From: Ignavibacteria bacterium
Lineage (GTDB): Bacteria; Bacteroidota; Ignavibacteria; Tepidaquicellales; OLB5
Assembly (NCBI GenBank): GCA_017303675.1
Contig: JAFLBX010000002.1
Location: forward strand, 1,300,411-1,364,410
DNA: 64,000 nt
Reading direction: 5' to 3'
In this document: piece by piece, positions 53,519 to 55,992 of the stretch
How positions within the stretch are numbered: the stretch's first letter is position 1
Layout: each line of letters opens with the position of its first letter
Notes under the pieces: model-generated
Databases searched by the model: none
Seen by the model: only the letters and a program-made list of their open reading frames with translations
Told to the model about the DNA's origin: nothing
Program-made: the position numbers and the translations under genes

Positions 53519-54988
53519 TTAATCATGGTTCCGTTTTCTTGGCACATACTCACCGTTTGATTCAATTGCTCTTGCATACTCGCTGTTCCAGCTTTTATAA
53601 AAGATGTCACGCGCTCTCTGCGTAAACTTTTCGCTTTCCACAACCAATCCAACATTTCGTGATTCATAAAAATAATCATGGCTCATGTTGCTTGTGCCTA
53701 TCCATGTGTAACTATCTGCTGTAATGAATTTACAATGCTCTACCCTTGCATACGGAATAAATCCGCCTGAATAGTCAGGTATAGAAGTATATCTCACTTC
53801 AAAATTTGGATATTTGATAAGCTCTTTAAAATGCTCAACAGCGGTTTTGCTTAAATTCCAGTCTGATACCAGCAGCTTTACCTTCACACCCCTTTTAGTT
53901 GCATTAATCAGAGCGGTATCAACTTCTTCCCAGTAGCCATCTTTTGTTACGGGATTATATGAGAGGAATTGTAAAGTAATTTCATTGGCAGCATAATTTA
54001 TCATAAATATGATCTCTTCAAGATCTTTATCTCCGTTAATATGGTAAAACTCTTTTGGACTTATTGTTGGTTTTACGTGTATTGAATCTCCATAAATACT
54101 TTTTAATATCCTGCAATATGGTTTATTTATAGTATAAATTGGCAGATCCCAGCTTTTGCCGTCATTTATTTCTGAATACTTCCAATCCTCGTTAAATATA
54201 TCTGAATATATTTTGATAAGATCCCTGTCTCCTGAAATTCTTATACCAAGCTCATGAATATGTTTTAATGCCCGCCAGTCAAAATTTTGCGAGCCAATGA
54301 AAACTTCACTGTCATCAACGATAAAGAATTTCGCATGCTGTATTCCCCCGGCAAGCGATTTAAAATCTATTACATGTTTAGTTATGTTTTGTGATTGTTG
54401 TTCCAGCCATGTTACATCATCAGGATATGTCCTGAACATTTCACCATCAACTATTATACGGACTATTACTCCCCTATTAGCAGCAGCAACAATTGCATTC
54501 AGCACTGTATCAAGCGGCTCGCCTTTTTCATTTGAGATATAGAATTGCTCTATATCAAGGGTTTTTTGGGCGGAGTTTATCATTTCCAGCCATACTTCCT
54601 GGGTGTTGCGGATATCGGGATTATCAAGTGTAGTCTCAACGGGAATGCTTTCAACAAGCTCAATATTATTTTCCTGAGAATATAATACTGAGCAAATTAA
54701 TACTATTGAAAGTACAACTTTTGCGAGTGAAGTATTGAGCCTGCGAAATACGAAGCGAAGCAATCCTATTAATAAAGCGTTATATGGATAAGATTGCTTC
54801 CCCAACGGGGTAAACGTCGCTTTGCTCCTCGCAAATAAGTTTATTTTTGCGAGGAATAAATCGAGCTTGCGAGATTTATTCCGAAGCAATCTCATTTGAA
54901 TAAAATTGTTATTTAATATCATGGGTTCTATCATGCTAAAGATTCCCGCCTTCGCGCCTGCCTGCAGCAGGCAGGGGAATAAAGTCAT
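53519..54988 (-). CDS. Phospholipase D superfamily protein (PLD3/4-like), secreted; true start uncertain
   Basis: Two HKD motifs (HAKFFIVD, HCKFITAD); LVESIP, IGSQNFDWR; first ~90 codons are repeat-derived. Confidence 0.85.
   Translation of the reverse strand: MTLFPCLLQAGAKAGIFSMIEPMILNNNFIQMRLLRNKSRKLDLFLAKINLFARSKATFTPLGKQSYPYNALLIGLLRFVFRRLNTSLAKVVLSIVLICSVLYSQENNIELVESIPVETTLDNPDIRNTQEVWLEMINSAQKTLDIEQFYISNEKGEPLDTVLNAIVAAANRGVIVRIIVDGEMFRTYPDDVTWLEQQSQNITKHVIDFKSLAGGIQHAKFFIVDDSEVFIGSQNFDWRALKHIHELGIRISGDRDLIKIYSDIFNEDWKYSEINDGKSWDLPIYTINKPYCRILKSIYGDSIHVKPTISPKEFYHINGDKDLEEIIFMINYAANEITLQFLSYNPVTKDGYWEEVDTALINATKRGVKVKLLVSDWNLSKTAVEHFKELIKYPNFEVRYTSIPDYSGGFIPYARVEHCKFITADSYTWIGTSNMSHDYFYESRNVGLVVESEKFTQRARDIFYKSWNSEYARAIESNGEYVPRKRNHD
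54719..54892. repeat. Three arms of the TTTGCGAG...GAAGCAATC repeat family inside the PLD 5' region
   Basis: Arms at 54719-54766, 54791-54835 (inverted), 54845-54892. Confidence 0.8.
54941..54980. repeat. Nested palindromes: CCTGCCTGC-A-GCAGGCAGG inserted in GATTCCCGCCTTCGCG/GGAAT
   Basis: Removing 54957-54975 restores ATTCCCGC-CTTC-GCGGGAAT. Confidence 0.8.
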
Positions 54989-55713
54989 TACTTCCTTGGA
55001 TTTGTAGGTCTTACCTCGATCTCGTGCAGAGTCGCATTTTCAGGCAGCGATGCTGCCAAAAGAATGGTTTCGGCTATATCTTCAGCCTGGAGTACTGATT
55101 CTTTCCTTGAAGAAAGCGAAGTTTGTGAGTCAGCCCTGAAAAATTCCGTGGCAACGCTTCCCGGGCAAACTGCGCATACGCGGATATTATACTGCCTTAC
55201 TTCAAGCATCAATGCGCGGCTTAAGCCCATTACTGCATGTTTGGATGCGCAGTAAATTGAGCCTGTTGCAAATCCCTGCTTGCCTGCGACTGATGCAATA
55301 TTTATAATTGTGCCGGATTGTTCTTTTATCATGTGAGGCAAAAAGCCTTTGGTGATAAGATATAATGAACGTACATTTGTATTGAATACAGAGTCAAAAT
55401 CTTCAAGTTTGGAATCAACCAGATTATCAAAGATACCGAATCCTGCATTATTAACAAGTATGTCTATTCTGCCATGATTGCCAATAGTTTCCTCAATTAC
55501 TTTATTTATTGTTTCCTCTTTGGAAATATCACCCGCAATAACGGAAATATTATCTTTGTAACTTTTATTTTCAGCGATTAACAGCTCGAGGTCAGACTTA
55601 TTCCTGGAAGTTAGCACAACCTTTGCGCCTTCTTTTAAAAACAGCTCCGCTGTTGCTTTGCCAATTCCTTTACCTGCGCCGGTAATTACTGCTATTTTGT
55701 TCTGTAGTTTCAT
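54988..55713 (-). CDS. Short-chain dehydrogenase/reductase (likely start MKLQNK at 55713)
   Basis: TGAGKGIG, NNAG, YCASK. Confidence 0.9.
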   Translation of the reverse strand: MKLQNKIAVITGAGKGIGKATAELFLKEGAKVVLTSRNKSDLELLIAENKSYKDNISVIAGDISKEETINKVIEETIGNHGRIDILVNNAGFGIFDNLVDSKLEDFDSVFNTNVRSLYLITKGFLPHMIKEQSGTIINIASVAGKQGFATGSIYCASKHAVMGLSRALMLEVRQYNIRVCAVCPGSVATEFFRADSQTSLSSRKESVLQAEDIAETILLAASLPENATLHEIEVRPTNPRK

Positions 55714-55992
55714 GACGTAATTTAATTTACAAATACTTTCGACTAAAGGAAGTGAACAGAAAACTAAAATTTCTTTCAAAATGAAAAAATACAGCTCTTT
55801 GTTTTATTATGGTTAGCTCCGCTCTTCAGAGCGGAGGAACAAAATAATCCGAAAAAAATGCGGCTTTAGCCGCCATTCCACAATCAACAATCCAAAATAA
55901 TCATCAATTAATTGCGGTTAAAGCCGCTTTGGTAAAAGATCTCTTAAATCCACGAGCTAAAGCTCGTGGCAAATCAATTACAATTAAATATT

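Follow-up and report, generated by a model that had tools for sequence, protein, structure and literature searches.

Repeat arms probably read in frame within the signal-peptide n-region of an intact PLD gene in an Ignavibacteria bacterium

Most of the N-terminal leader of a PLD3/PLD4-like gene in an Ignavibacteria bacterium consists of repeat DNA. The gene lies on the minus strand of the analysed window (64,000 nucleotides, positions 1,300,411 to 1,364,410 of contig JAFLBX010000002.1), next to an SDR gene whose stop codon precedes it. Between that stop codon and the hydrophobic part of the predicted signal peptide stand three arms of a genome-wide repeat family, here called A, C and B. Where does the translation of such a gene start? 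An earlier note on this DNA had recognised the repeat-built leader, which our analysis supports, and had supposed that repeat insertion replaced the native start, leaving the gene either rescued by repeat-derived codons and translational coupling or a recent pseudogene. Comparison with orthologs favours a different reading. It is rather probable that translation starts upstream of all three arms, likeliest at ATG 54934, and reads through A, C and B into an intact gene, with ATG 54922 or 54895 as possible alternative upstream starts.

The features of the locus are collected in Table 1. The 270 bases between the SDR stop and the hydrophobic segment are made up of a palindrome, a single-copy stretch, arm A, arm C, a loop and arm B, and the PLD frame is open from ATG 54988 to the stop at 53519. 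The end of arm B is the exact beginning of the h-region. The segment VVLSIVLICSVLYSQ (54718-54674) contains no ATG, GTG or TTG, and the next in-frame ATG lies deep inside the mature domain. The earlier note had this anatomy right: the coordinates check out for a hydrophobic core that has no start of its own and adjoins a repeat arm, for a frame open up to the ATG at the SDR stop, and for three arms and a nested palindrome. The starts that it named (TTG 54763, ATG 54895 and ATG 54988) are in the PLD frame too, but it overlooked the two single-copy ATGs at 54934 and 54922, the ATA at the head of arm B and the membership of the arms in a genome-wide family. One peptide stretch of the predicted repeat-bearing leader is FARSKATFTPLGK. 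In the predicted fold, arm C pairs with arm A (3' end) and with arm B (5' end), and the fold of the leader region is far more stable than that of shuffled sequence (z = -5.3). An Rfam search gave no RNA family in the leader region and only two tRNAs in the whole window. A simple sigma-70 scan of the minus strand in the SDR-PLD gap gave no promoter-like or terminator-like site, with the reservation that promoters of the phylum may differ. Since there is no terminator-like site between the two genes, they are probably co-transcribed.

Table 1. Features of the PLD leader and gene in window coordinates
Feature	Position	Strand	Remarks
Stop codon TAA of the SDR gene	54990-54988	minus	overlapped by in-frame ATG 54988-54986
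REP-type palindrome, ATTCC...CGCGAAGGCGGGAAT	54980-54942		read as 'PAKAGI'
Nested 19-nucleotide palindrome, CCTGCCTGCTGCAGGCAGG	54975-54957		within the outer palindrome
Proposed start (ATG 54934-54932) and single-copy leader segment, MIEPMILNNNFIQ	54934-54896	minus	39 bases
Second in-frame ATG	54922	minus	within the single-copy segment between palindrome and arm A
Arm A, direct, 51 nucleotides, ATGAGATTGCTTCGG-stem-TCGCAAGCTC-stem-CCTCGCAAAA	54895-54845	minus	read as MRLLRNKSRKLDLFLAK
Arm C, inverted relative to the PLD gene	~54836-54792	plus	nested insert of ~15 nucleotides; minus-strand reading FARSKATFTPLGKQS
C/B doublet loop, 22 nucleotides	54791-54770	minus	YPYNALL
Arm B, direct, 51 nucleotides, decayed stem	54769-54719	minus	read as IGLLRFVFRRLNTSLAK; contains TTG 54763
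Signal-peptide h/c-region, VVLSIVLICSVLYSQ	54718-54674	minus	predicted signal-peptidase I site after Q (codon 54676-54674)
Mature PLD3/PLD4-like enzyme, two HKD motifs, and stop codon	54673-53519	minus

The PLD gene is present in 30 of 41 related genomes, and further copies came from metagenome contigs and the protein database; of the best 120 clusters in the latter, 30 carry a leader derived from the repeat. Genus- and family-wide searches found no repeat-bearing species beyond the first 40 relatives; it was the metagenome loci and the protein database that gave more lineages. The number of repeat arms per related species ranges from 0 to 5 (17 to about 100 extra residues), in the same n-region. 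The leaders were sorted into two architectural groups. In group 1 (L003, L007, L010, L022, L065 and the window) the palindrome is followed by ATG-ATA-GAA... (MIE.KIL...), 13 codons, a direct arm and the h-region. The window leader is this group 1 head with an extra 126 nucleotides, namely arm C, loop and arm B. In group 2 (L002, L013, L023, L009, L008, L006 and L064) an ATG at the SDR stop, one codon later in L009, is followed by one to three inverted-plus-direct doublets and the h-region; the N-termini read MKFNN..., MRFSRH... or MIFSKH.... Orthologs with plain signal peptides of 19-30 residues are more distant or scattered (L004, L005, L011, L012, L014-L016 and L018-L020), and L004, L005, L011, L012 and L014-L016 are among those that are repeat-free.

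Is the open frame through the leader more than a matter of chance? In the window it is, because the other two frames of the same 72 leader codons hold 8 and 3 stops. The 11 orthologous leaders, of 30-115 codons, have no stop at all in the PLD frame, while the other two frames contain 46 and 24. As a control we took the 28 doublet orientations found elsewhere in the genome (the same doublets read on both strands, with one tandem array besides), of which 6, or about 21%, are open across the doublet in the same frame. As dS between the species is above 1, unconstrained AT-rich spacers would have gained stops. The leader lengths are 30, 31, 38, 41, 48, 54, 72, 79 and 115 codons, all of them whole-codon (multiples of three). 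With 30/31 and close variants counted once, these nine values give seven distinct classes, and several independent insertions or deletions have therefore kept the frame. The seven-codon loop recurs in every doublet at the PLD locus. What is more, all leaders are net positive (+1 to +14) and have one strong hydrophobic window at the end, which fits an N-in signal.

There is a further question, which codon opens this frame? ATG 54934 is single-copy, lies upstream of all the arms, and is homologous to the MIE.KIL starts of L003, L007, L010 and L022. In the sister pair L010/L011, the repeat-free L011 begins a plain signal peptide MMNKAKIYITIV... (MMNKAKIYITIVSLMLSSTALFSQ) at the ATG homologous to 54934, its only possible start. 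When the start segment and arm A were searched as one query, full-length matches were confined to the PLD locus. The repeat's own ATG has been lost or deleted in seven lineages (ATA in the window, and CCG, AAG, ACG, TGG, GTx or a deletion in the others), and the upstream in-frame ATG is kept in all of them. The energy needed to open the window RNA is 5.0 kcal/mol at ATG 54934 and 13.5 at TTG 54763, as compared with 3.6-7.1 at four control gene starts. Because the upstream ATG is conserved, L011 uses it without any repeat and group 2 keeps an ATG at the SDR stop, the repeats are best described, from these alignments, as in-frame insertions inside the signal-peptide n-region, stop-free in a conserved intact gene that does without them in some orthologs. 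The conserved ATG 54934 upstream of the repeats speaks against the supposed replacement of the native start. Gene callers are inconsistent here, placing the PLD start at the upstream ATG, the repeat ATG or the TTG. A GTG directly after LAK was also considered as a general start and rejected; it occurs in only 3-4 lineages, and the window has GTT GTA.

Rearranged alleles give a view of how such leaders change. L054 (1201-1400; P0022) has a leader near-identical to that of the window, with three point differences, minus exactly 126 nucleotides of the window allele. Its junction falls inside the conserved 10-nucleotide loops of arms A and B and creates the hybrid arm MRLLRNKSRKL|NTSLAK. The junction shares only 10 nucleotides, too short for assembler collapse, though metagenomic contigs may contain assembly errors. 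We take this allele as direct sequence evidence that recombination between arms can add or remove units in frame. L006 has tandem units of 111 nucleotides, and in L063 the ATGA start comes into frame through a deletion that has joined one half of the palindrome to one half of an arm. The rearranged alleles that we compared are always in frame.

What kind of repeat is this? The consensus of the family is ATGAGATTGCTTCG...CTCGCAAA, in a fuller form ATGAGATTGCTTCG(TC)GCTTCGCTC(CTC)GCAAA. The direct-arm pattern has 98 loose matches in the genome (G000), 56 after a prefix filter, some chance hits included. The copies are dispersed and their usual form is an inverted doublet around a loop of 15-30 nucleotides, as in REP/REPIN-type interspersed repeats. 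The copies at the PLD locus are of a 51-nucleotide long form, a hairpin-forming imperfect palindrome with an internal hairpin whose stem is 10 bp. Over 13 copies from 11 species, 84% of the cells of this stem pair and 8 of the 10 pairs have compensatory changes; none of 500 shuffles reached the observed stem score. The 10-nucleotide loop TCGCAAGCTC is conserved among long-form copies. A short form of 27-33 nucleotides is commoner; not being palindromic itself, it can pair only when an inverted partner is present. In the PLD frame the element reads M-R/G-L-L-R-x-x-S-R-K-L-D-x-x-L-A-K, a basic peptide that owes its basic residues to the conserved arm and loop. Both other frames have stops in copy A, where the MRLLR..SRKL..LAK frame alone is stop-free. 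Outside the window, at C2:632800-633420 of the same genome, there are tandem units of about 106 nucleotides with one short-form arm (TTTGCGAGGAGCGAAGCGACGAAGCAATCTCAT) each and an assembly gap of Ns. No other long open reading frame through the same family was found genome-wide; two candidates, at C1:1204424 and C1:1166181, were discarded (ordinary gene start downstream of the repeat; chance match). As for a RAYT association, the genome has nine Y1_Tnp genes (RAYT/IS200-like loci, e.g. C1:483378-483725 and C2:430890-431231), whose flanks carry other small hairpin families (GGGCTAAAGCCC, CCCCGCCATTTATGGCGGGG and CCCCACCCTTTAAGGTGGGG) and not the GATTGCTTCG...CTCGCAAA arms.

Several observations weigh against initiation upstream of the arms. 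At 87 to 130 residues, the signal peptides would greatly exceed the usual length. A TTG within GATTGC is present in every repeat copy and could serve as a start, and L052 is a case in which no ATG but the internal one is present. Because of the kinship between the lineages and the likeness of several loops, the open-frame counts are not independent trials. Finally, the leader of the window differs from that of the 96% relative L053 by only 12 changes, which give a dN/dS of about 0.55 and show no clear bias towards third positions, and from this comparison the constraint in the window/L053 leader seems to be as much nucleic-acid as coding.

One alternative is a start inside the last arm, at TTG 54763 or, weakly, at ATA 54769, with the upstream frame inherited or incidental. 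The signal peptide would then have 30 residues, MLRFVFRRLNTSLAKVVLSIVLICSVLYSQ, a textbook length with a basic n-region. In most relatives the codon two places upstream of the TTG is ATG, a position on the edge of an AT-rich loop. L052 (P0036, 784-880) is the only leader found in which the repeat ATG is the sole ATG; its SDR C-terminus is NPSD* instead of NPRK*, which destroys the ATGA start, and its upstream frame is still open. A general caution comes from Di Nocera et al. (2013, PMC3733652), according to whom REPs that coincide with annotated N-termini are in many cases extragenic. However, an internal start leaves unexplained why 11 of 11 leaders have no stop and only frame-preserving insertions or deletions when so few control doublets are open, and why the upstream ATG is always kept where the repeat ATG has been lost. 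What is more, TTG is a weaker start codon than ATG, and this one is buried in the 13-bp C/B stem, which accounts for its high cost of opening. We therefore regard an internal start as the sole way into the gene as unlikely, yet as the strongest competitor. The internal ATG or TTG may also be used, alone in some lineages or beside the upstream start. Of the rescue by repeat-derived codons, then, a possible secondary start at TTG 54763 survives, with the qualification that the stem sequesters it.

Could translation instead begin at ATG 54988, coupled to termination of the SDR gene through the TAATG overlap? The leader would have 105 residues and include the palindrome. The frame is indeed open from 54988 in the window and in L054, and five group 2 orthologs have an ATGA/SDR-stop overlap in the PLD frame. 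On the other hand, L053 has no ATG at the overlap and has an in-frame TGA within the nested palindrome, before its MIEPKIL start, and no start precedes the palindrome in L003, L010, L022 and L065. Hence the stop/start overlap (54986-54990) is not conserved among relatives, being absent from L053 and from these four palindrome-bearing orthologs. The outer hairpin occurs without the 19-nucleotide insert in 5 orthologs. An ATGA is also present in the repeat-free L004, where its frame closes after four codons, and the overlap is therefore best seen as a by-product of the SDR C-terminus RK*. By these alignments the in-frame overlap in the window is probably fortuitous, and the coupling that the earlier note had proposed is unlikely in this genome.

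The enzyme itself bears on the claim of a recent pseudogene. The mature part begins near ENNIELVESIP (54673). Pfam finds PLDc_2 twice (9e-36) and PLDc_3 in it, and matches across the mature domain include PDB 7e0m at 1e-70 and PLD3 at 2e-33. With an HxKxxxxD motif in each of two PLDc domains, the predicted product belongs to the PLD superfamily, in the PLD3/PLD4/poxvirus K4-like branch. HAKFFIVD and HCKFITAD have both stayed intact, and neither a frameshift nor a stop interrupts the gene. For the mature part, dN/dS is 0.05-0.13 (0.05-0.08 against closer species, with dS >1) and 0.10 against the 96%-identical metagenomic relative L053; compared with six close sequences, the window protein has no unique residue change. 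Low dN/dS and two intact HKD motifs indicate a mature enzyme under strong purifying selection and a gene that is no pseudogene. Arm B opens with ATA (54769) in place of the ATG of the repeat consensus and of the closest relatives; L053 has TCA ATG GGA against TTA ATA GGA in the window. Since the closest relatives (P0001, P0003 and P0006) have ATG, the G-to-A change would be recent and derived, and it is harmless if translation starts upstream. That this change removed the working start and left the window copy silent or a very recent pseudogene is highly improbable, for all that the change is recent, given the low dN/dS, the unaltered protein, six other lineages that lack the same ATG and keep intact genes, and the in-frame ATGs that remain upstream of 54769.

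How would a precursor with such a leader be handled? The steps from initiation through repeat translation to export and cleavage are predicted as follows. Copies of the interspersed repeat family would have landed in the n-region, or been duplicated there by recombination. Ribosomes starting at 54934 would read arms A, C and B and produce a precursor with a signal peptide of 87 residues. Its n-region, of 72 residues and net charge +11, is about three quarters repeat DNA, and this length is far outside the usual range. Residues 73-85 form the sole h-window of the leader (Kyte-Doolittle 2.83); the h-region VVLSIVLICSVL is followed by a predicted signal-peptidase I site between YSQ and E, and a YSQ/FAQ/YAQ motif before the cleavage site is conserved in orthologs. 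A lipoprotein signal was rejected, as the Cys of LICS lacks conservation and the residue at -1 does not fit. The basic, repeat-encoded n-region would stay in the cytoplasm, in keeping with the positive-inside rule, the h-region would engage the Sec machinery, and signal peptidase I would cut after YSQ, so that the repeat peptide is discarded. For an insertion to survive, it would have to keep the frame, contain no stop and encode a non-acidic peptide. The n-region may thus be a safe harbour, as its constraint on sequence and length is weak, it is located in the cytoplasm and it is removed after export. Repeats would accumulate there because the peptide is discarded and the demands on n-region sequence are low, and for the same reasons selection seems to act only on the open frame and the positive charge. 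A comparable layout is known from the ESPR of autotransporters, a conserved protein motif, about 25 residues long, for which a function has been proposed. Like the ESPR, the leader described here is an unusually long N-terminal extension ahead of a normal h-region and cleavage site. Unlike it, the extension is variable in sequence and length, derived from repeats, and shows no sign of peptide selection beyond the open frame and positive charge.

The hairpins of the leader might also act as a regulator, a proposal to which we give little weight. Upstream initiation would melt the C/B stem and yield the long-leader form, while at low initiation the stem would hide the internal ATG/TTG. This would make a two-isoform switch or tune PLD export (e.g. 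with temperature or SDR translation), and recombination between arms would reset the switch from strain to strain.

How old is the presence of repeats in the leader? Nine congeneric species have the ...LAK/h-region junction in common, and the arrangement is therefore old. On the PLD tree the repeat-bearing state is scattered, with at least 3 changes even on well-supported branches, and L004 and L005 nest among L001-L003. A single gain in one clade was rejected in view of these changes and of leader types at odds with mature-domain similarity. Such scatter points to loss, replacement and recombination, which fit better than one clean gain, and the disagreement between leader and mature domain suggests recombination within the locus. 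Window-type leaders (P0003, P0006 and P0022) are found with mature enzymes only about 80% identical, while orthologs of 87-89% identity (L002 and L003) have other leaders.

Two more variations were noted among the orthologs. In another clade (L055 1190-1290, P0026; also P0061, P0063, P0066, P0027 and P0043) the signal peptide MQLRAKRSNLFVLFILILF... is of normal length, and its n-region MQLRAKRSNL is a short inverted arm in a different frame (ATG CAA TTGCGAGCGAAGCGAAGCAATCTT). The ATG, the only possible start there, is 2 nucleotides past the SDR stop and two codons upstream of the arm. Four species (L003, L009 and L013; also G015:C188:410-478) have a remodelled PLD 3' end, where a new stop is followed by a PAKAGI-type hairpin (EIPAFAGMT) and a duplicate of the last ~25 codons (SWNSEYA.PIES.GEY..R.R..*). 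The window has no such remodelled end. Elsewhere in the window, the spacer between two SDR genes (55780-55992) contains at least 4 other short hairpins, e.g. GCCACGAGCTTTAGCTCGTGG, GGCGGCTAAAGCCGC and CCTCCGCTCTGAAGAGCGGAG; one of the hairpins, at 55873-55860, is terminator-like.

Repeats that enter coding DNA are not new in bacteria. The Rickettsia palindromic elements, or 'protein-coding palindromes' (Ogata et al. 2000, as related in PMC3733652 and PMC3184786), are small interspersed palindromic repeats that lie in frame and stop-free in functional genes, at residue-tolerant sites, and the arms at the PLD locus resemble them in this. As far as those accounts go, the present case differs in several respects: the arms sit in a cleavable signal peptide, within its n-region, so that the repeat peptide is probably discarded after export; the arms are stacked in both orientations, up to 115 codons, and their units turn over by recombination among species; and it involves another repeat family and another phylum (Ignavibacteria). 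Intragenic REPs and inverted REP dimers inside open reading frames have also been described, many of them NH2-terminal, in clusters that encode 43-82 residues (Di Nocera, De Gregorio and Rocco 2013, PMC3733652). The likeness is in the short REP-like repeats and inverted dimers within the N-terminus of a reading frame. Most of the N-terminal cases were judged probable misannotation by those authors, whereas here the frame preservation, the loss of internal ATGs and the repeat-free sister with the same upstream ATG argue for translation. Unlike REP systems with a RAYT, this family has no RAYT link among the loci compared. BOX and RUP of pneumococcus and BRE of Bordetella extend the 5' ends of genes (Delihas 2011, PMC3184786; Delihas 2007, PMC2759123), and there too the beginning of a host gene is joined in frame to a repeat-borne open frame. 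Most of those are single annotated examples that lack comparative support, while the fusion at the PLD locus persists across synonymously saturated species, in an export signal. Compared with known in-frame repeats, what seems new here is the cleavable n-region site, the stacked arms of two orientations, the turnover of units and the comparatively maintained frame.

What does the locus mean in general? As a natural experiment, it bears on the amount of foreign sequence that the signal peptide of a bacterium can be loaded with while the enzyme behind it stays under strong purifying selection. Annotators of such genomes should check start-codon calls beside repeats by comparison. If the leaders are translated, cleavable sorting signals would be safe harbours in which selfish repeats can enter coding DNA and leave the mature protein unharmed, and the idea of the Rickettsia 'protein-coding palindrome' would extend to a new phylum and a new protein compartment.

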